Positions 4,236-13,918 of a DNA stretch of 14,300 nucleotides are shown here, one piece after another. Every line of letters begins with the position of its first letter. The first letter of the stretch is position 1. Source of the DNA: a virus. The translations under genes and the position numbers were made by a program. The stretch lies in the UHGV virus genome UHGV-0153413; one strand, written 5' to 3'. Below the pieces are notes generated by a model. It ran no database searches and was not told the origin of the DNA. It was given only the letters and a program-made list of their open reading frames with translations.

Positions 4236-4404
4236 CGTCTTCTTCCTCGTGCATCGAGCTATTCGGATCGCTCATCAGTTCTGCGCAGCAGTGCTCACAC
4301 ACGTGAACTTCCAGCACATGCAGCTTCTGACCGCAGTTAGCGCACGTTAAAGCCCGCTCGACGCTTTCTTTCTGGTATTGAAGGGATTGGGATGGACTAA
4401 GCAT
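4228..4404 (-). CDS. ninF: NinF
   Basis: Internal start [43 protein letters not shown]... (58 aa) matches lambda NinF from memory. The 77-aa track ORF is an upstream extension. Confidence 0.75.
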
Positions 4405-4804
4405 GGCTTTCACCATTAAAAAGTCGCTTGTAAGCATCAATGTCTCGTTTTGCTTCACCAAGCTTTCGTCTTAATTCCATGTTTTCTGATTCAAGCTTTT
4501 CCATGTCTTGCTGGTATCGATCGCGGTGTTCTTTCCATGCTTTTCGATACGCCTTCATGTATGTCGTATTGGCCTTTCTCTTTGCCTGACGAACTGCGTG
4601 GTGGTTTTTCACAAACCAGTCAGGGTCGTTAAATGCTGCTCTGGCGCATGTATACCAATAATTTGTTGCCTCCCTGTTTAGCCAATAAATACTGATAAAT
4701 GGCAACTGGATAGACACCATTTTTCGTTGAGACTCTTTCTCGCCAAACATGTGCCCTTTTTTGATGCTAAGGCCAAATCCAGGTTGAATTAAAAGCATTG
4801 TCAT
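4397..4804 (-). CDS. Hypothetical protein in the NinX position (between ninE and ninF)
   Basis: 135-aa [28 protein letters not shown]... Its ATG overlaps the ninE stop (ATGA). Lambda has no gene here; P22-like nin regions carry ninX at this spot. Homology to NinX not verified. Confidence 0.5.
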
Positions 4805-4977
4805 TTCCTCGCACGATGTCTTAGCCACCGGATATCCCACAGGTGAGCCGTGTAATTGAAGGTTTTTACGTCAGATTCTTTTGGGATTGGCTTGCGTTTA
4901 TTTCTGGAGCGTTTCGTTGGAAGGTATTTGCAGTTTTCGCAGATTATGTCGGTGATACTTCGTCGCTGTCGTCTCAT
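4801..4977 (-). CDS. ninE: NinE
   Basis: Internal start [51 protein letters not shown]... matches lambda NinE from memory. Confidence 0.8.
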
Positions 4978-5384
4978 TCGTACCTCCTGTCGGTAAATCT
5001 GACACCCTGACCAATAGCCCATGCTGTCGTGTACTCAATCAGGCTTGCCATGCGCTTCACGCTCATCTGCGCGCTACTTTCGCGAATGTTGACGTATTCG
5101 CCTTCAAGCCCGGGCAAAACATCAGCTTCCTGCTTTGTTGCCACTGCATGACCGCTGATCAACAAAACCTTCCATTGTTCTGGTTTTAACCATTTATCGC
5201 ACCATTGAACCTGACGTGCGATATCCGCCAGCATCGCGTGAAATTTTGCGTTCTGGTCAAGGTTGCGCTTGTAGTCAGTAATGCGGATGGTGACTGGCTT
5301 GTCTTTATCGAGTGGTGTTGCGAGGATGGCATTTATTGCAGCTTGCTGTTGTTGCTTAGTTCGGAGGAAGATTGTTTGCTTCAT
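4974..5384 (-). CDS. ninB: NinB (Orf family recombination mediator), divergent from lambda
   Basis: 136-aa ORF with NRSLDQN-like core ([29 protein letters not shown]) similar to lambda NinB/Orf as recalled. Sits in the ninB position. Confidence 0.7.
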
Positions 5385-5386
5385 CG

Positions 5387-5779
5387 TTACTCCTTCACTT
5401 TGACTCCAGCAGCGCGGATGGCGCTCTGCACCTCGCTTACATACAGATATGGGGTTCGCCCACTATGCATGGTAAAGCTTTCAGGAAGCTCAATCTCGAT
5501 AGCTGCTCGCGATGCCTGCCACGTTTGCCAGTGGCCTTGAACATCGTCCATCACGTATTGACCACCAATATTACCGCTGCCAATTTCATGGTGATTTTCA
5601 GGGTAACGGATAAGGTCTGAAGATTCGCCCCCACGTCGTAACCAACTCTCTTCAAACTGGCATCTGCTTTCGTCATCTTTCATAAGGCAGTCACATTCAA
5701 TAAAAATCGGCTCTCCCCAAGAAGTAGAACCTCCGCTATCACACATTCCTGTGTTATTGCACTTTTGGCACTTGCTCAC
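5387..5779 (-). CDS. Hypothetical Cys-rich protein (putative zinc-binding)
   Basis: 130-aa ORF, GTG start preceded by RBS GGAGG at 5-nt spacing. N-terminal CQKC...C...ECDC cysteine cluster. No family recognised. Confidence 0.55.
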   Translation of the reverse strand: MSKCQKCNNTGMCDSGGSTSWGEPIFIECDCLMKDDESRCQFEESWLRRGGESSDLIRYPENHHEIGSGNIGGQYVMDDVQGHWQTWQASRAAIEIELPESFTMHSGRTPYLYVSEVQSAIRAAGVKVKE

Positions 5780-5791
5780 ATTAACCTCCGA

Positions 5792-5998
5792 TTAACTCAC
5801 AAAACGCCACGCCATTTTTGCTACAGCGACAGGCATAACACCGATAATCACCCAGACAAATGCAGCGCCAAACAACGTATACCATGGGTCTTTACCGTCA
5901 TTCACAAGACGAATGTAGCTATGCAGAACAATAAAAAACGTCAGAAGAATCCATCCAACGCCAACGCATTTGAATGCGACGAGCATAAACTCAGCCAC
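5792..5998 (-). CDS. Small predicted membrane protein (about 2 TM)
   Basis: 68-aa ORF, GTG start with RBS GGGGGAGAG immediately after the tR2-like terminator. Two hydrophobic stretches (VGVGWILLTFFIVL; LFGAAFVWVIIGVMPVAVA). Confidence 0.5.
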   Translation of the reverse strand: MAEFMLVAFKCVGVGWILLTFFIVLHSYIRLVNDGKDPWYTLFGAAFVWVIIGVMPVAVAKMAWRFVS

Positions 5999-6011
5999 GA
6001 TTTACTCTCCC

Positions 6012-6045
6012 CCAAATAAAAAGGCCTGCGATTACCAGCAGGCCT
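6012..6045 (-). terminator. tR2-like rho-independent terminator between the replication genes and the nin region
   Basis: Minus strand AGGCCUGC / UGGUAAUC / GCAGGCCU (perfect 8-bp stem) followed by UUUUAUUUG. Same position as lambda tR2. Confidence 0.7.
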
Positions 6046-6070
6046 GTTATTAGCTCAGTGACGTAGATGG

Positions 6071-7447
6071 TCATACGTCAGCCCCTTGTGCATATCGTCT
6101 GCCACGCGCAGCGGGCGCATTTGATGCTGTGCAAATCTGTCTGGCTTCATCCTGGTCACATGCAACAAAGTGTCCGTTGCAGAACCGCTGGTAAACCGTA
6201 CCAAGCGAGCCAAAACGGTTTTTTGTCACAATGATTTCAGCAAATGGTGCGGCGCTACTGTTCTCGTCATATACCGCTTCCCGATAGAGCATGATGATTG
6301 AGTCTGCGTCCTGTTCAATGCTTCCTGAATCACGCAAATCTGCGTTTGTCGGGCGTTTGTTTGGTCGCTTCTCAACATCGCGCGAAAGCTGACTCAGGGA
6401 GATAACTGGCGTTTTCAGGTCTTTCGCCATCGCCTTCAGGCTTCCGGAGATGTGAGCAATTGCGAGGTCGTTGCGGTCTGCTTTCGGCTTCTCAATCAGG
6501 CCAAGATAATCCGCCATGATGAGTGACAGGTTTGGATTTTCCTGTTTGTGCCGTTCTGCGATTGAGCGTATTTCTTCGACCGATAACCGCGAGGCATCGA
6601 CTACCCATACATCCAAATCTGCAAGCTGACTCATGCCGTTAGCAACACGCGCCCAGCCTTCGTCATCCATCGATGCAGGATTTCGCAGCACGCTAACCGA
6701 CATCCTCCCGGCGTTGGCAATGCTTCGCTCTGCAATCTGCAATGCGCTCATTTCCATTGAGAAAATCAATACCCCGCGCCGGACGTCAGAACCAGGAATA
6801 ACGCGGCTTGCCACGCCTTCGGCAATCTTCAGAGCCAGTTCGGTTTTCCCCATACCAGGACGAGCAGCGATTATCACCAGGTCTTCCGCGTTCATCCCTC
6901 CGGTGATGGCATCAAGTTCTTCGATTCCGGTCTTCAGGGTATCTGACTCTTCTCCGTTCCTCAGACGCCTGTCAAGCGTGTCGGTGTAGTCAGTGATGAT
7001 TTCCCCTAACCGTACAGGTTTAACCTCGTCACGGGGCTTTCTGATGGCTGAGAGACGCTTTACAAGCTCATCCATCGCCTGACTCGATGCGTCGATGGTT
7101 CCGCTCTGAATTGGTTCACGCATTTCATCCATGATTTCCAGCACCAGACGGCGGTGATAGTTATCCGCGACCATTCCGGCATATCCCTTCAGGTTTGCGG
7201 CACTCGGGCAGTTCTTACTGGTCATCAGGATTGACGTGAAATGCTCCTCTCCGCACGCCTCGGCAACCATCAGCGCATCGATTAGGTTTCTGTTTCTCGC
7301 CTGCTTGCGGATAACCTCGAAGGCTTTCCGGTAGAGCGGAATTGAAAACGCTTCCGGCTCCAGTGTTGCCAGAACGTCGCTGGCGGTTGGAGTTAATCCA
7401 CCAATCAGCAGGCCACCGATAACGCTCGCTTCGATATCCTGTCTCAT
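6071..7447 (-). CDS. DnaB-family replicative DNA helicase (P22 gene 12-like, replaces lambda P)
   Basis: 458-aa ORF with Walker A GMGKT ([15 protein letters not shown]) and DnaB-type downstream motifs. Start overlaps the O-like stop (ATGA). Confidence 0.9.
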
Positions 7448-8265
7448 GCAATCCCCCTGTCTGCAAACTTCCCTTCCCGAACTCCCGTTAACGAGTCTTC
7501 CCTCAGCAGGTAATCAAAATCTGCCGTCCAGCCCGTGTCGTTGTCTCCGAAGTAAAACGGCTTGGCCTGATGCACAAACGCCCTGACATACGCTCTGAAA
7601 CCGTCCACGTTTGGCGTTTTCAGTTGCGGGATGATTTTCTTCAGGCGGCGTTTGCGTTTCTCGTTGACCGCAACAGCATGTGGAAGTCTGTCACCGACTT
7701 CGGTGTTGTAGGCGTTCAGGAAGGATTCATAGTCGATTCGTTCTGCCTTGCGACGTTCAGGTTTAACCTGCCCATCGCCGCCCCCGTTAGGGGGTAAGGG
7801 GGTATTTGTATTTATTGTCTTTTGTATATTGTCTTTTGTGTTTAGCTGACTTGGCTTATACCCATTAGCCGACTTGGCTAATGTTTTATTAGCTGTTTTA
7901 GCTAATGTTAAGCTGTCCTGGCTAATCCACTGAGAAACCACCTTGTTCACTCCGATTTTCACGCCATCAGCAATGAGGAATTTACGCTCGATAAGCTGGC
8001 GCTTGGCAGCGCAAACATGAGTGTGATGAATACCTGTCATGGCTGCTATCTGCGTGTTTGTGAGTCGATCCATCGGCTTATTGAATCCGTATGTCTTGCG
8101 CATGATAGCGAGCATCACCTTCAGCTGCCGGACGGTTAAATCAGCCATCAGCAGACTGTCGGTAATCTCGTTAGCAACGCGCATGAAACCATCTTCGGTA
8201 TCTGCCACGCGATGCTCCACGACCTCCAGTTGAGGCCTGTAATCAGCTAACTTAACGACGCCCAT
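7444..8265 (-). CDS. Replication initiator (lambda O / P22 gene 18 family)
   Basis: 273-aa ORF. N-terminal domain [33 protein letters not shown] resembles the lambda O N-terminus. The linker region is encoded by the iterons. Confidence 0.85.
7801..7928. repeat. Origin of replication inside the O-like gene: four iterons plus an AT-rich region
   Basis: Four spaced repeats, each an internal dyad: ttagctgacttggcttata (7842-7860), ttagccgacttggctaatg (7865-7883), ttagctgttttagctaatg (7889-7907), ttaagctgtcctggctaatcc (7908-7928). AT-rich tract 7801-7841 with repeated gtcttttgt. Same architecture as lambda ori. Confidence 0.7.
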
Positions 8266-8726: not shown

Positions 8727-8784
8727 ATGTAAGTATTTCCTTAACAAATAAGAAGTTATGCGCATCAACTTGTGCGCGTTGTAT

Positions 8785-8828
8785 TCCCGCATTTCGGCGG
8801 GAATGAGGACCATGACTGTTAAAGAGCG
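8785..8828 (-). promoter_or_regulatory. nutR (boxA CGCTCTTTAA plus boxB hairpin) between cro and cII
   Basis: Minus strand CGCTCTTTAAcagtcatggtcctcatTCCCGCCGAAATGCGGGA. The boxB hairpin (6-bp stem UCCCGC/GCGGGA) is identical to the one in nutL. Confidence 0.6.
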
Positions 8829-9135: not shown

Positions 9136-9852
9136 ATGGAAAATAAAAAATCACTGACGACAGAACAGCTCGAAGACGCTAAGCGGCTTAAGGCTTTGTA
9201 TGAGTCAAAAAAGAAAGAATTGGGAATAACCCAATACTCAATCGCTGATGAACTGGGTATCACCCAAGGAGCGGTAGGGCATTATCTTAATGGCAGAAAC
9301 GCGCTAAACGTTGAGGTTGCATCTGGTTTTGCACGACTGTTGCAAGTCTCAATTGCTGATTTTAGCCAGTCAATTGCTGCCAAGGTTGCAGAACAGGCAG
9401 AAAGCCTTAAGAGCGATGCCAACGTAAGGTATGCAGGGGAATACAGAGCAGGAAAGAGGTATCCGGTGTTAAGCAGTATCCAGGCTGGCTCGTGGTGTGA
9501 AGCATGCGAACCATACACCATTAAAGACATAGATGTTTGGCTTGAGTCTGACGCGCATATTCAAGGTAATGCGTTTTGGCTTAAAGTGGAAGGTGATTCA
9601 ATGACGGCACCGGTTGGGTTAAGCATTCCAGAGGGAACATTCGTTCTTTTCGATACCGGAAGGGAGGCGATCAACGGCAGCTTGGTCATAGCAAAACTTT
9701 CTGACTCTAACGAAGCAACATTCAAGAAGCTGATAATCGACGGCGGAAATAAATACCTCAAGGGACTTAATCCTGCATGGCCTCTCGTGCCAATCAATGG
9801 AAACTGCAAGATTATAGGCGTTGCAATTGAGACAAAACTAAGGCTGGTTTGA
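9136..9852 (+). CDS. cI: CI repressor (HTH-XRE N-domain plus S24 LexA-like autopeptidase C-domain)
   Basis: 238-aa ORF. HTH region QYSIADELGITQGAVGHYLNG, Ala-Gly (SIQAGSW) candidate cleavage site, catalytic Ser in GDSM and Lys in FKKL. Divergent from cro across the operators. Confidence 0.9.
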   Translation: MENKKSLTTEQLEDAKRLKALYESKKKELGITQYSIADELGITQGAVGHYLNGRNALNVEVASGFARLLQVSIADFSQSIAAKVAEQAESLKSDANVRYAGEYRAGKRYPVLSSIQAGSWCEACEPYTIKDIDVWLESDAHIQGNAFWLKVEGDSMTAPVGLSIPEGTFVLFDTGREAINGSLVIAKLSDSNEATFKKLIIDGGNKYLKGLNPAWPLVPINGNCKIIGVAIETKLRLV

Positions 9853-9869
9853 TCACGCAAGGGGCGATT

Positions 9870-10238
9870 ATGGTTGGAACCGCTATAGCAAGCTTTTTTG
9901 GGATGTTGGCAATCTCGACAATTTACGTCTTAGCGCATGCTTTTATTGCGAAATCTCTATCAGAAAAAATAAGCCAGGCTTGGGCGCATAGATCAGCTCG
10001 TTTCATGATTCTTGTGATCATAGCAATACAAGGGATATCTGCATTTATCCTCTATGTATCAAGCTTATACCTATTGTATCAAGGCGCGACATTTACGCCT
10101 TACACCAGTGATTACGGAACTCTATACGATGGTAGTGAAGACATCACTGTGGCTTGGATCGTCTTTGGTTTATCTATGGCCGTGTCTGTTGTAGCAGACA
10201 TCATTAAGGTAATTCTCGTCTTAACCTTCGCTGACTAA
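9870..10238 (+). CDS. Predicted 3-TM membrane protein in the rex position (cotranscribed with cI)
   Basis: ATG 9870 with RBS AAGGGG (a TTG at 9849 overlapping the cI stop is an alternative start). Three hydrophobic helices. Sits between cI and OL/pL, where lambda has rexA-rexB. No recognisable similarity to RexB as I recall it. Confidence 0.6.
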   Translation: MVGTAIASFFGMLAISTIYVLAHAFIAKSLSEKISQAWAHRSARFMILVIIAIQGISAFILYVSSLYLLYQGATFTPYTSDYGTLYDGSEDITVAWIVFGLSMAVSVVADIIKVILVLTFAD

Positions 10239-10765: not shown

Positions 10766-10885
10766 ATGTTAGACATCATGACCAACCCAATTCTCGGTGG
10801 TTTAGTTACCACATTCGCCATCTGCTTCGGTTTCACTATCTGGTCTGAAGTAGATGACTGGATGTGGGAACGCAAAAACAAATAA
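10766..10885 (+). CDS. Small single-TM peptide ORF (39 aa) in the N leader
   Basis: Hand-translated: RBS GAGGAA 8 nt before ATG 10766, MLDIMTNPILGGLVTTFAICFGFTIWSEVDDWMWERKNK, stop TAA 10883-10885. One hydrophobic helix then a charged tail. Below the ORF-track size cut-off. Confidence 0.4.
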   Translation: MLDIMTNPILGGLVTTFAICFGFTIWSEVDDWMWERKNK

Positions 10886-10925
10886 TCATCGACACACAAG
10901 GATGTGCACCTACCCGGAGGTCAAC

Positions 10926-11198
10926 ATGACAGTAGTCATTACATATCTGGCTGACGATAACACCAGAAATCGCCGCAGAGCACGCAGACAGGCTCAACGT
11001 GAACAGGCAATGCAAGAGCAGCGACTGGCGCGAAAAATTGCGCTAAAGCTCTCTGGTTGCGTCAGAGCAGATAAAGCAGCATCACTCGGAAGCCTTCGCT
11101 GCAAGAAGGCAGATGAATGCAGCGGAAGTATTTGCCTGCCAAACGTAGCCATTTACGCGGCAGGCTACCGGAAATCAAAACAACTGACAGCGAGGTAA
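10926..11198 (+). CDS. N: Antiterminator N (arginine-rich motif)
   Basis: ATG 10926 with RBS GGAGG at 5 nt. N-terminus MTVVITYLADDNTRNRRRARRQAQREQ carries an arginine-rich boxB-binding motif like lambda and P22 N. First gene after pL/nutL. The 114-aa track ORF is an upstream extension. Confidence 0.75.
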   Translation: MTVVITYLADDNTRNRRRARRQAQREQAMQEQRLARKIALKLSGCVRADKAASLGSLRCKKADECSGSICLPNVAIYAAGYRKSKQLTAR

Positions 11199-12703: not shown

Positions 12704-13411
12704 ATGAATTTGAATAAATTCGACGAGCCATTCAGCCCTGAAGATATCGAATGGCGAATACAGCAAAGCGGTAAAACACGCGATGGCAAGGTGTGGGCTA
12801 TGGTGCTGGCTTATGTCACGAACCGGGCAATCATGAAGCGCCTGGACGATGTTTGCGGCAAAGCAGGATGGCGCAATGAATACCGCGATATTCCCAACAA
12901 CGGCGGAGTTGAATGCGGCATATCAATCAAGATTGATTCCGAATGGGTAACCAAATGGGATGCCGCTGAAAACACGCAGGTAGAAGCCGTCAAAGGTGGT
13001 CGTTCCGGTGCAATGAAGCGCGCTGCCGTTCAGTGGGGAATCGGTCGGTATCTGTATAACCTTGAGGAAGGTTTCGCACAAACATCTCTCGATAAAAAGC
13101 AGGGGTGGCACAGGGCAAAACTGAAGGATGGAACAGGATTTTACTGGTCCCCTCCATCGCTGCCGGGCTGGGCAATGCCAGTATCAGATAACAAATCACC
13201 ACCAGAAAATACCAACCAGAAATCTCCATCGGTTGACTGCGAACAAATCCTGAAAGACTTCAGCGATTATGCATCGAAAGAAACTGACAAGAAAAAACTC
13301 ATCGAGCGTTATCAGCGTGACTGGCAATTAATGGCTGGCAATGAGGATGCGCAGGCTAAATGCGTTCAGGTAATGAACATCAGAGTTAACGAGCTAAAAC
13401 AGGCGGCATAA
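12704..13411 (+). CDS. Putative single-strand annealing protein (Rad52-like family)
   Basis: 235-aa ORF with RBS GAGGTGA. Sits where lambda has bet, immediately upstream of an SSB gene. N-terminal region (WAMVLAYVTNRAIMKRLDDVCGKAGW...GISIK) is consistent with Rad52-like recombinases as recalled; not verified. Confidence 0.55.
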   Translation: MNLNKFDEPFSPEDIEWRIQQSGKTRDGKVWAMVLAYVTNRAIMKRLDDVCGKAGWRNEYRDIPNNGGVECGISIKIDSEWVTKWDAAENTQVEAVKGGRSGAMKRAAVQWGIGRYLYNLEEGFAQTSLDKKQGWHRAKLKDGTGFYWSPPSLPGWAMPVSDNKSPPENTNQKSPSVDCEQILKDFSDYASKETDKKKLIERYQRDWQLMAGNEDAQAKCVQVMNIRVNELKQAA

Positions 13412-13918
13412 ATGGCAAGCAGAGGCGTAAATAAGGTGATTATCCTTGGTCGGGTAGGACAAGACCCGGAAGTTCGATACTCACCATCAGGAACAGCGTT
13501 CGCTAACCTGACAATAGCCACGTCAGAACAATGGCGAGATAAAAATACTGGCGAGCAAAAGGAATTGACTGAATGGCATCGTGTTGCTGTATCCGGGAAA
13601 CTGGCTGAGGTCGTGGGGCAGTATGTGAAAAAAGGTGATCAGATTTATTTCGAGGGAATGCTGAGAACCAGAAAGTGGAAAGACCAGTCAGGGCAAGACC
13701 GTTACACAACCGAGGTTCATGTCGGAATTAATGGCGTGATGCAAATGCTTGGCGGCATTGGCGACAGCAAACAACAAGCAGCCAGCAGGCAATCACAGAA
13801 GCCACAGCAGCAATCATCACCAGCACAACACAACGAACCTCCGATGGATTTTGACGACGATATACCCTTTGCACCAGTAACTCTCCCCTTCCCTCGTCAC
13901 GCTATTCACGCAATTTAA
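13412..13918 (+). CDS. ssb: Single-stranded DNA-binding protein (SSB) with a 15-aa extension past the DDDIPF motif
   Basis: OB-fold N-terminus [34 protein letters not shown]...W(H)RV, Gln/Pro-rich linker and acidic tip MDFDDDIPF. The ORF then continues [15 protein letters not shown] before the stop. Confidence 0.85.

Follow-up and report, generated by a model that had tools for sequence, protein, structure and literature searches.

The closest described counterparts of the two genes analysed here encode gp58 and gp59 of phage HK022. The former, together with the ORFs that follow terminator tR2 in HK620 and H-19B, represents PHROG 1165, whose members are alike in their length of 68 aa and in their two hydrophobic segments; they are located right after tR2 and are translated from the Shine-Dalgarno (SD) sequence adjacent to it. 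The latter, which likewise follows a 68-aa ORF and precedes ninB, represents PHROG 343 (PF26207), a family with a common core made of an SRxQFE.W helix, the motif W..WQASRAAIEIELP and an AGLKVK tail. Our pair lies in a window of 14,300 nucleotides, the whole stretch of virus genome UHGV-0153413 that was analysed. Its 68-aa protein is an ordinary member of PHROG 1165 with no notable difference. The 130-aa protein differs from its PF26207 relatives in an additional N-terminal module, a predicted C4 zinc ribbon, and in the particular way in which its middle and C inserts are combined.

All features of the locus are on the minus strand. The final gene ahead of the terminator (6071..7447) encodes a replicative helicase of DnaB type, as in P22 gene 12 and HK620 P (Pfam DnaB_C E=9.5e-78, DnaB E=4.5e-13; PHROG 19). 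It is followed by the intrinsic terminator tR2 (6014..6045), located by terminator scan and alignment, which consists of the stem-loop AGGCCTGCTGGTAATCGCAGGCCT (6045-6022; 8-bp GC-rich stem, 8-nt loop) and, directly 3´ of it, the T-tract TTTTATTT (6021-6014). The 68-aa ORF (5792..5998) starts with GTG, 6 nt downstream of the SD GGGGGAGAG (6005..6013), which was identified by direct reading and alignment. Its stop is separated by 12 nt from the GTG of the 130-aa ORF (5387..5779, TAA stop), whose SD, GGAGG (5785..5789, direct reading), is placed 5 nt 5´ of the start. Both ORFs, taken from the ORF list, thus have the strong ribosome-binding sites and the position between tR2 and ninB that the earlier note ascribed to them. 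The ninB gene for the Orf recombination mediator (4974..5384; Pfam NinB E=4.2e-54, PHROG 72) begins 2 nt after the TAA, and its own SD (AAGGAG, 5395-5390) falls inside the last codons of the 130-aa gene. Rfam and tRNA scans of the whole window were empty.

The terminator, first described as tR2-like, can be named more precisely. We aligned its block with lambda, HK620, H-19B, SPN9CC and one E. coli prophage. The 24-nt stem-loop with its tail is identical to the lambda ren-ninB interval, and the same element is annotated as "terminator tR2" in HK620. Because every base of the hairpin equals that of lambda, we consider it to be tR2 itself. In lambda, the SD GGGGGAGAG serves ninB directly; compared with lambda, the two genes are inserted precisely where the tR2/SD block meets the start codon of ninB. 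They do not stand where lambda has ren, as was supposed, since in lambda and H-19B ren precedes tR2 and falls outside the tR2-ninB slot, which in lambda is empty. Ren is also a small non-essential protein encoded between replication genes and ninB, but it has no sequence or profile similarity to the present proteins: hhalign of our 122-sequence profile against lambda Ren gave a probability of 0.2% (E=0.35), and no Ren match to either protein was found in Pfam or NCBIfam. In Pfam and PHROG, neither protein matches NinB, NinE, NinF, NinG, NinH or NinX, and the same scans match neighbouring ORFs strongly to NinB, NinE, NinF and NinG. The view that the two proteins stand apart from the Ren and Nin families therefore agrees with hhalign, Pfam, PHROG and NCBIfam alike.

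NinA, the first named nin ORF of P22, HK620 and HK630, resembles the present genes in its position at the tR2 terminator. It is, however, a 27-aa ORF over the hairpin and matches neither of the two proteins. Its counterpart in our window is a 27-aa ORF at 5991..6074 (ORF list, ninA annotations, block alignment), whose start codon overlaps the stop of the helicase gene (ATGA). It spans the tR2 hairpin, corresponds to the 84-nt "ninA" annotated over the terminator in HK620, HK630 and SPN9CC, and is a doubtful coding sequence. The identification of the 68-aa ORF as NinA was rejected, because the annotated ninA is this separate ORF (6074-5991).

A scan of the minus strand from the terminator to ninB found no sigma-70-like promoter, and only 6 nt lie between the terminator T-tract and the SD-to-start block, so that a promoter cannot fit there. 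We consider it safe to infer that expression of both genes depends on read-through of tR2. The exclusive dependence stated in the earlier note is a stronger claim, as terminators leak. In lambda, deletions of the nin region give independence of N. By analogy with lambda, tR2 would terminate transcription unless N is present, and the window contains the two elements expected for such a switch. Firstly, an N antiterminator gene is located in the leftward operon (10854..11198, plus strand; Pfam N_peptide PF25694, E=2.3e-14), its real start probably being internal to this ORF. Secondly, direct reading revealed a nutR-like site just after cro (8784..8828, minus strand), composed of a boxA-like CGCTCTTTAA (8828-8819) and a hairpin UUCCCGC-CGAAAU-GCGGGAA (8803-8784). 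The boxA pattern by itself is not above chance in a pattern search, and the nutR assignment was made because of its position and established lambda biology; the site would be a candidate for loading of N-modified, terminator-resistant transcription. Both genes would then be transcribed only as delayed-early from pR, by N-modified RNA polymerase reading through tR2, and their products would be active in the lytic cycle, but not in lysogens.

It was overstated to call the two proteins unrecognisable: both belong to catalogued families (PHROG 1165, PHROG 343, PF26207) that occur in long-sequenced phages (HK022 as gp58/gp59, HK620, H-19B). The 68-aa protein matches PHROG 1165 over its entire length (E=5.2e-39, residues 1-68 vs profile positions 1-68 of 68). 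It is equivalent to HK022 gp58 (56% identity) and is 94% identical to an ORF of HK620; in HK620 and H-19B the equivalent is unannotated. The family counts 107 phage records. Our search gave 61 homologous clusters, mostly of exactly 68 aa, and this length is kept in homologues down to 51% identity. The dN/dS of the ORF is 0.33-0.55. Two hydrophobic stretches (residues ~4-27 and ~40-60) have Kyte-Doolittle 15-residue means of at least 1.8, with maxima of 2.1 and 2.5, respectively, and the GRAVY is 1.20. They are separated by a polar loop RLVNDGKDPWY with conserved GKD, and the C-terminal half is highly conserved (WVIIGVMPVAVAKMAWRFVS). Each of them appears long enough to span the membrane, in line with the two transmembrane segments proposed originally, and the product may form a helical hairpin in the inner membrane with N-in/C-in topology. 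Its matches to T4SS_pilin (E=0.027, below cut-off) and a cation/H+ antiporter subunit (E=0.019) were put down to hydrophobic composition. For neither protein did Pfam, NCBIfam or PADLOC return anything significant. Nothing relevant on PF26207, phiTE_015, HK022 gp58/gp59 or the peptide motifs of either protein came up in the literature, and neither gene is mentioned in the literature retrieved on nin regions and accessory-gene screens.

The 130-aa protein belongs to PHROG 343 (E=2.5e-26, residues 25-130 vs profile positions 26-125 of 135) and, in residues 36-130, shows 74% identity with HK022 gp59. A precomputed assignment to PF26207 (Phage_phiTE_015) at E<=1e-5 exists for P0001, which is 98% identical to it, and for each of the 120 homologues listed. 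Our local Pfam-A scan returned no family for the 130-aa protein and none for the labelled homologues alike; the PF26207 model is therefore probably missing there. A single-sequence search found 163 homologous clusters, a profile search 4,074. At 90% identity, the family comprises over 4,000 clusters, every one labelled hypothetical; one member is a homologue of "unknown protein encoded by BP-933W" in vB_EcoP-683R2. According to an exhaustive profile search, 832 representative clusters share the core, encoded here by codons 33-130 and the stop (5387..5683). The order of its elements is a helix SRxQFE.W, a variable middle insert, a helix W..WQASRAA, a strand IEIELP, a variable C insert, a helix and the tail AGVKVKE, with W84, W87, S90 and R91 being invariant. 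The core motif is conserved in protein to about 30% identity, including Pseudomonas, where no DNA identity remains, and the core region compared with HK022 has dN 0.043 and dS 0.172. Judged by such comparisons, both ORFs are real genes under purifying selection. Because the KVKE codons double as the ninB SD, constraint on the DNA could account for part of the conservation of KVKE. AlphaFold gave an unusable model from a 43-sequence alignment (pLDDT 56) and a confident one from a 122-sequence alignment (pLDDT 87.5). No solved structure matches the latter. In sequence comparisons with solved structures, the single sequence found nothing and the profile only S10 (E=1.2). An ArdA match in one relative (E=0.89) was disregarded.

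For a stretch 100% identical to ours, RefSeq/PGAP calls a shorter protein of 98 aa, beginning at the internal Met33. We favour the GTG start and 130 aa, because this GTG is accompanied by GGAGG, the N-terminus is conserved and relatives start equivalently, one of them with ATG. With the GTG as the true start, the RefSeq gene model loses a conserved zinc-ribbon module. (The PGAP features of NZ_CP063515 were rejected as annotation of the whole window, since identity is confined to a 664-bp stretch and cI and N fail to map by coordinate.) The module, codons 1-32 (5684..5779), has the arrangement C4-x2-C7 ... C29-x-C31 and the signature TG..DSGG..WGEPI..ECDC. The cluster was reported earlier as CxxC...C...CxC. 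The CxxC and CxC pairs stand, with C4, C7, C29 and C31 conserved family-wide, but C13 and C40 vary, and the cluster should therefore be written CxxC...CxC, a C4 site. Among the module-bearing relatives inspected, the sole ligand exception is P0230 with Gly at the position of C29. The module is conserved in relatives of 39-47% identity; pN of this Cys-rich N-terminus is 0.23-0.30 and synonymous sites are saturated in comparison with distant relatives. AF2 predicts a beta-hairpin (strands 12-18 and 24-28, pLDDT about 88) between the Cys knuckles, so that four conserved Cys in two knuckles flank a hairpin, as the suspected zinc ribbon would demand. We regard the N-terminus as a predicted C4 zinc ribbon, which would bind zinc; Pfam zinc-finger models gave no match to the protein at E<0.1. 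The same module is found N-terminally on otherwise mostly unrelated phage proteins (PAK_P3, Seurat), and about 1 in 7 of the PF26207 members parsed possess it. The 130-aa product would be a soluble, acidic protein in which a C4 zinc ribbon is fused to the small alpha/beta domain of PF26207.

Many nucleic-acid-binding proteins contain zinc ribbons, and the 130-aa protein might be an accessory factor of DNA metabolism. The ribbon, together with a conserved patch of basic residues (R39, R91, K127, K129), would contact DNA or a protein of replication or recombination, and the factor would aid the upstream helicase as well as the downstream NinB/Orf and NinG/Rap. The gene is indeed situated between replication genes and ninB, in a region rich in recombination functions, PF26207 is the commonest occupant beside ninB among the loci listed, and the invariant Ser-Arg with the terminal Lys-x-Lys could contact phosphate. 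Yet the protein is acidic overall (pI 4.9), and so is the family (median pI 5.1, 85% of members net negative). Most members do without the ribbon (153 of the 197 parsed, and all 36 carriers of PF26207 among the listed tR2 loci), and the predicted fold resembles no DNA-binding domain above noise. The family also occurs in Pseudomonas jumbo phages and in unrelated virulent phages of Skate/C1 type (about 47 kb), where it is found among small early genes next to weak Lar-like, Tad2-like and NinX-like ORFs and adjoins neither NinB nor recognisable replication genes. We consider a role in DNA metabolism unlikely. The presence in virulent and jumbo phages rather suggests a general role in phage infection, not lysogenic conversion.

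How the tR2-ninB slot is occupied in other phages was surveyed in IMG/VR, where at least 120 loci have an exact tR2; 108 of those listed have ninB within reach, the locus sample being redundant. In 57 of the 108, ninB stands directly 3´ of tR2, and the remaining 51 contain inserts of 0.2-1.3 kb. The commonest occupants among these loci are the PF26207 gene (36 loci, twice in two of them) and/or the 68-aa gene (25 loci). The tR2-ninB junction thus forms a variable cassette slot, bounded on the left by the tR2/SD block and on the right by the ninB start. In complete E. coli genomes, part of the 664-bp stretch is found in 1,982 of 5,426 (about a third), and at least 80% of it in 52.

One might assume that the two genes work as one unit, a membrane effector with a cytoplasmic partner that senses or regulates; such a unit might, for instance, exclude superinfecting phages, abort infection or time lysis. 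The two genes are adjacent at 12 nt and occur together in 18 of the loci listed; moreover, the same pair with identical spacing is found behind replication modules of DnaB type, IstB/DnaC type and primase-helicase type. Many small membrane proteins of phages are agents of exclusion, such as T4 Imm and HK97 gp15. On the other hand, the genes assort independently: in the loci listed, PF26207 is present without the 68-aa ORF in 18 and the 68-aa ORF alone in 7, HK620, H-19B and HK630 carry the 68-aa ORF without its partner, and PF26207 is widespread in phages that have no member of the 68-aa family. A position behind tR2 with no promoter of its own would be poor for exclusion expressed from a prophage, and neither protein matches the PADLOC models of defence systems at E<=1. 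A joint unit is in our opinion very unlikely.

Within the PF26207 gene itself, the inserts are combined freely. The middle insert of the 130-aa protein pairs with 18 different C inserts and three N-terminal architectures, its C insert pairs with 7 different middle inserts, and four-gamete squares are present among the insert combinations. The variable inserts may reflect relaxed constraint and homologous recombination at linkers rather than diversifying selection. On another view, both ORFs would be hitch-hiking filler with little or no function, kept in place because conserved linkers promote homologous recombination among lambdoid phages, namely the tR2/SD block, the stretch coding for WQASRAAIEIELP and the KVKE/SD junction. 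Recombination joints do coincide with conserved blocks, frameshifted copies exist in some genomes (e.g. P0072, P0192), and the slot is empty in about half of the phages listed, so that its content is dispensable. Nevertheless, filler would hardly remain under purifying selection in both ORFs, retain the core motif of its protein in Pseudomonas and further hosts, where identity has dropped to about 30%, maintain the length of 68 aa strictly and be predicted to adopt a compact, confident fold. We find this explanation barely credible.

Taken together, the locus is ordinary lambdoid mosaicism of catalogued hypothetical genes and no new system. With moderate confidence, we favour two genuine, independent accessory genes in the recombination-prone tR2-ninB slot of a lambdoid prophage with a P22/HK620-like early region. 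It is not likely that either of them is essential. Our best guess is that they encode delayed-early, N-dependent accessory proteins which bind targets of the host or of rival elements. In the PF26207 protein, a scaffold of two Trp-containing helices, S90-R91 and the C-terminal KVK tail would display two swappable inserts, which are exchanged between phages in a combinatorial manner, as is the optional N-terminal module. What follows is the most speculative step of the proposal. Because combinatorially swapped inserts sit on a conserved scaffold, we think of a small binding protein; it might sequester or modulate a variable target in the host or a competing element early in infection, with the zinc ribbon as an extra, portable interaction module, and would act as a host take-over or counter-defence factor.

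A much bolder version would make PF26207 a large, structurally novel family of counter-defence or take-over proteins with cassette-exchanged specificity, and the tR2-ninB junction a dedicated, N-switched "anti-defence slot" of lambdoid phages. This seems to us decidedly unlikely. If true, hypervariable inserts and N-terminal modules (the zinc ribbon, "MRWAIKHKSGR") recombine at conserved intragenic linkers and provide phages with a combinatorial repertoire against variable host targets, in a slot turned on only after N-mediated antitermination. The locus by itself changes little. Its modest uses are a correction of the RefSeq model for such genes, which misses the conserved zinc-ribbon module, a well-defined and easily engineered cassette slot that mostly holds a PF26207 gene, and attention to a very large family with a confident predicted fold lacking an analogue among solved structures and with striking intragenic shuffling. 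Once the function of one PF26207 member is established, thousands of genes in phages and prophages of enterobacteria and Pseudomonas could be annotated.

Two further groups of known proteins invite comparison. T4 Imm and HK97 gp15 are, as predicted for the 68-aa protein, very small helical proteins of the inner membrane encoded by non-essential phage genes. No homology to them was detected, PHROG labels the family "unknown function", and the 68-aa gene differs from theirs in standing behind a terminator in a lytic operon, with no prophage promoter. C4 ribbons and the CxxCxGxG knuckles of DnaJ type share with the 130-aa protein a CxxC followed by Gly-rich residues (CPKCNGTG in P0100), then a beta-hairpin and a second Cys pair that closes the site. 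Here there is a single site and its second knuckle is CxC instead of CxxC. Unlike the C4 and DnaJ-type knuckles, the zinc module of the 130-aa protein is a portable, phage-specific one.

The two genes lying between tR2 and ninB on the minus strand of the window are both real, and their products are ordinary members of catalogued, uncharacterised families. The earlier note read the anatomy of the region correctly (terminator, 68-aa and 130-aa ORFs with strong ribosome-binding sites, ninB next) and overstated matters in calling the proteins unknown; both occur in phages sequenced more than 20 years ago. That note regarded homology to a Ren or Nin protein whose function is established as contrary to its reading; none was found for either protein, and open-access full text yielded nothing on either family. 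In complete E. coli genomes the 664-bp stretch finds a partial match in 1,982 of 5,426, and is covered to at least 80% in 52.

The 68-aa ORF (5998-5792, minus strand) begins with GTG, 6 nt behind the Shine-Dalgarno (SD) sequence GGGGGAGAG, and its product matches PHROG 1165 from end to end (E=5.2e-39). Its 61 homologous clusters are nearly all exactly 68 aa long, with identity down to 51%, and the protein is encoded in 107 phage records, including HK022 (gp58) and many Stx2a phages; in HK620 and H-19B the gene is present but unannotated. Comparison with five relatives gave dN/dS of 0.33-0.55. Residues 4-27 and 40-60, approximately, are hydrophobic; there is also a polar loop (GKD), and the C-terminal half hardly varies. 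Judging from its sequence, the product would form an inner-membrane hairpin, and the basic C-terminal tail suggests N-in/C-in topology. A second terminator-like hairpin with a T-run lies within this ORF (5937-5962, minus strand); it is weak (three GC pairs, G-T pairs) and probably due to chance, as the terminator scan returned 4 sites against 2.1 expected.

The 130-aa ORF (5779-5387, minus strand) also starts with GTG, 12 nt past the stop of the 68-aa ORF and 5 nt behind the SD GGAGG, and its TAA precedes the ninB ATG by 2 nt. The SD of ninB is made of the final codons of the 130-aa gene (AAG GAG, from ...KVKE; 5390-5395, minus strand), so the conservation of C-terminal KVK(E) among lambdoid members may be partly a matter of DNA. 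The protein matches PHROG 343 (E=2.5e-26), and PF26207 (Phage_phiTE_015) is the precomputed Pfam assignment of every one of its homologues; a local Pfam scan matched neither the 130-aa protein nor the proteins so labelled, the model being probably absent from our copy. Against HK022 gp59 the core of the gene gives dN 0.043 and dS 0.172; in the Cys-rich N-terminus, compared with distant relatives, synonymous change is saturated and pN is 0.23-0.30. That the genes are functionless filler, retained through recombination linkers, is very unlikely in view of this purifying selection and of the deep conservation at protein level. In some genomes, genes of the 130-aa type are frameshifted or truncated (P0072, P0192, P0202 and P0249, E. 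coli and metagenome homologues), which fits decay in cryptic prophages.

The start of the 130-aa gene deserves attention, since a mis-called start here hides a predicted zinc ribbon. In E. coli EH01-18-04-A (NZ_CP063515.1, 985539-985835), where the DNA is 100% identical, RefSeq/PGAP calls only 98 aa from Met33, omitting a conserved N-terminal module (window 5684-5779, minus strand). The evidence favours GTG: it has GGAGG 5 nt upstream; the Met33 start would open a gap of 108 nt in an operon whose genes are elsewhere closely packed; relatives begin in the corresponding place (GTG in close ones, ATG in a single distant one); and residues 1-32 are conserved at protein level among proteins of 39-47% identity. 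Many database entries starting "MKDDESRC..." look like the same truncated call (for example homologue P0025, with 96 member sequences). The CxxC...C...CxC cluster described in the earlier note holds in part: C4, C7, C29 and C31 are kept across the relatives of 39-47% identity, except for Gly at the C29 position in homologue P0230, as are TG, DSGG and WGEPI, whereas C13 and C40 vary. Structure prediction, suggested at the time as a check for a zinc ribbon, gave an AlphaFold model in which a beta-hairpin (12-18, 24-28) separates one Cys pair from the other, and a single C4 zinc ribbon is predicted. The whole product would, judging from its sequence, be a soluble acidic zinc-ribbon protein. The same module of about 30 residues heads proteins, for the rest mostly unrelated, of Pseudomonas PAK_P3-like phages (403 aa) and coliphage Seurat (179 aa), and is therefore portable. 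In the PAK_P3 403-aa protein (viral locus L013, 1471-2682) the ribbon is followed by "EEFLAW...GWMARAA", which resembles the first two PF26207 helices, and then by a second Cys pair region (CSTC...CPDC); this hints that ribbon and helical hairpin may travel together.

PF26207 itself is large: an exhaustive profile search gave 832 representative clusters at 50% identity and a word-indexed one 4,074 at 90%, with source names "hypothetical" or "phage protein" throughout the matches listed. A typical member has 85-105 aa and lacks the zinc ribbon. It opens with a helix (SRxQFE.W) and ends in the tail AGLKVK; between these come, in order, a first variable insert (about 25-40 residues), the helix that carries invariant W..WQASR, the strand IEIELP, another variable insert and a further helix. 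The family is acidic (median pI 5.1). These genes (window 5387-5779, homologues P0001-P0404) are built from independently recombining cassettes, namely N-terminal module, middle insert and C insert, with the conserved helices acting as joints. The middle insert of the window (WLRRGGESSDLIRYPENHHEIGSG..GGQYV.DDVQGH) is joined elsewhere to 18 different C inserts and three N-terminal architectures, its C insert has 7 different middle inserts as partners, and reciprocal combinations were found. Phage contigs of some 47 kb show a second option at the N-terminus, the module "MRWAIKHKSGRTLFVTSDEFIANNRRKMGWIVEE", at times alongside the zinc ribbon. It is its size, its novel predicted fold and this cassette-shuffled architecture that make the family of note.

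Mosaicism extends to the interval between tR2 and ninB. The pair of 68-aa ORF and PF26207 gene follows three different replication modules, and its spacing is the same in each case. We surveyed at least 120 IMG/VR contigs with the exact tR2 hairpin, a redundant set whose proportions are indicative only. Among the matches listed, ninB is within reach in at least 108 loci; it follows tR2 directly, as in lambda, in at least 57, and inserts of 0.2-1.3 kb intervene in at least 51. Also among the matches listed, the PF26207 gene occupies the interval in at least 36 loci and the 68-aa ORF in at least 25: both together in at least 18, PF26207 only in at least 18, the 68-aa ORF only in at least 7. The two genes thus assort independently, which, together with their place behind tR2, makes it improbable that they constitute a two-gene module of membrane protein plus sensor. 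None of the 36 PF26207 genes listed for these loci has the zinc module, which makes the form with the zinc ribbon the less common of the two. Two listed loci (L078, L092) each hold two different PF26207 genes in one interval.

A sequence scan found no promoter-like site on the minus strand between tR2 and ninB. The window encodes N (Pfam N_peptide, E=2.3e-14), and a boxA-like CGCTCTTTAA with a hairpin lies directly past cro. By analogy with lambda, both genes would be delayed-early: they would be expressed only if N-modified polymerase passes tR2, and would then act during lytic growth. PF26207 members are found in temperate lambdoid phages, in Pseudomonas jumbo phages and, among small early genes, in virulent Skate/C1-type siphoviruses, which points to a role in infection generally rather than in lysogenic conversion. 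The conserved scaffold, combinatorially exchanged inserts, early accessory-gene neighbourhoods and acidic character together lead us to speculate that the protein could be a small binding protein directed against variable targets of the host or of rival elements, serving host take-over or counter-defence. We hold the anatomy and mode of expression to be quite probable and this function to be doubtful, if worth proposing; for the whole combined, the chances are about even. A helper in DNA metabolism for the adjoining replication and recombination genes seems unlikelier still than a binding protein.

The surroundings are those of a lambdoid prophage early region in reverse orientation. On the minus strand, cro and a cII-like gene are followed by an O-type initiator (7444-8265), a DnaB-type helicase (6071-7447) and, after the two genes, ninB (4974-5384), ninE, a PHROG 1511 gene, ninF, ninG, a NinH-like ORF, a phosphatase gene (from its product sequence), Q and lysis genes. 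The PHROG 1511 gene (4397-4840; E=5.7e-86, function unknown) takes the NinX position between ninE and ninF; no Pfam family matches it significantly, and towards the C-terminus it resembles a coiled coil. Between Q and the holin gene about 500 nt (1764-2262) contain no convincing ORF, tRNA or Rfam match and are presumably the pR'/qut/tR' late-promoter region; many Stx phages, in contrast, carry tRNA genes there. The leftward operon includes a gene (12704-13411, plus strand) for an annealing protein of the Rad52/Rad22 family (Pfam E=4.7e-26), and the next ORF (13412-13918, plus strand) appears SSB-like, with C-terminal DDDIPF. A strongly hydrophobic 129-aa ORF (9849-10238, plus strand) overlaps the end of the gene for the cI-like repressor (9136-9852). 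It occupies the place that rexA/rexB have in lambda, and so its product is a candidate for a membrane protein expressed in the prophage; its sole Pfam match, Cation_ATPase_C, is weak (E=0.002, below cut-off).

The insertion point is cleanly defined. Directly after the helicase stop the terminator scan placed an intrinsic terminator (stem-loop 6045-6022, T-tract 6021-6014), which, over its 24-nt stem-loop and tail, does not differ from the hairpin that lambda has in its 73-nt ren-ninB gap; it is tR2 itself. A block of about 75 nt, ATGACCATCTAC...AGGCCTGCTGGTAATCGCAGGCCTTTTTATTTGGGGGAGAG, is nearly invariant across lambda, HK620, H-19B, SPN9CC and E. coli prophages. A 27-aa ORF (6074-5991, minus strand), starting in an ATGA overlap with the helicase stop, spans the hairpin and is conserved with lambda; it may be a genuine gene or may simply result from conservation of the terminator block. 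It is the counterpart of the annotated ninA of HK620, HK630 and SPN9CC, a 27-aa frame over the hairpin, and the 68-aa gene is accordingly not ninA. The SD that ends the block serves ninB in lambda and the 68-aa ORF in the window; measured against lambda, the pair is therefore inserted exactly between this tR2/SD block and the start codon of ninB. They do not stand where lambda has ren, as had been supposed: the window phage, with its DnaB-type helicase, has no ren, and in lambda and H-19B ren lies upstream of tR2 and hence was not displaced by them.
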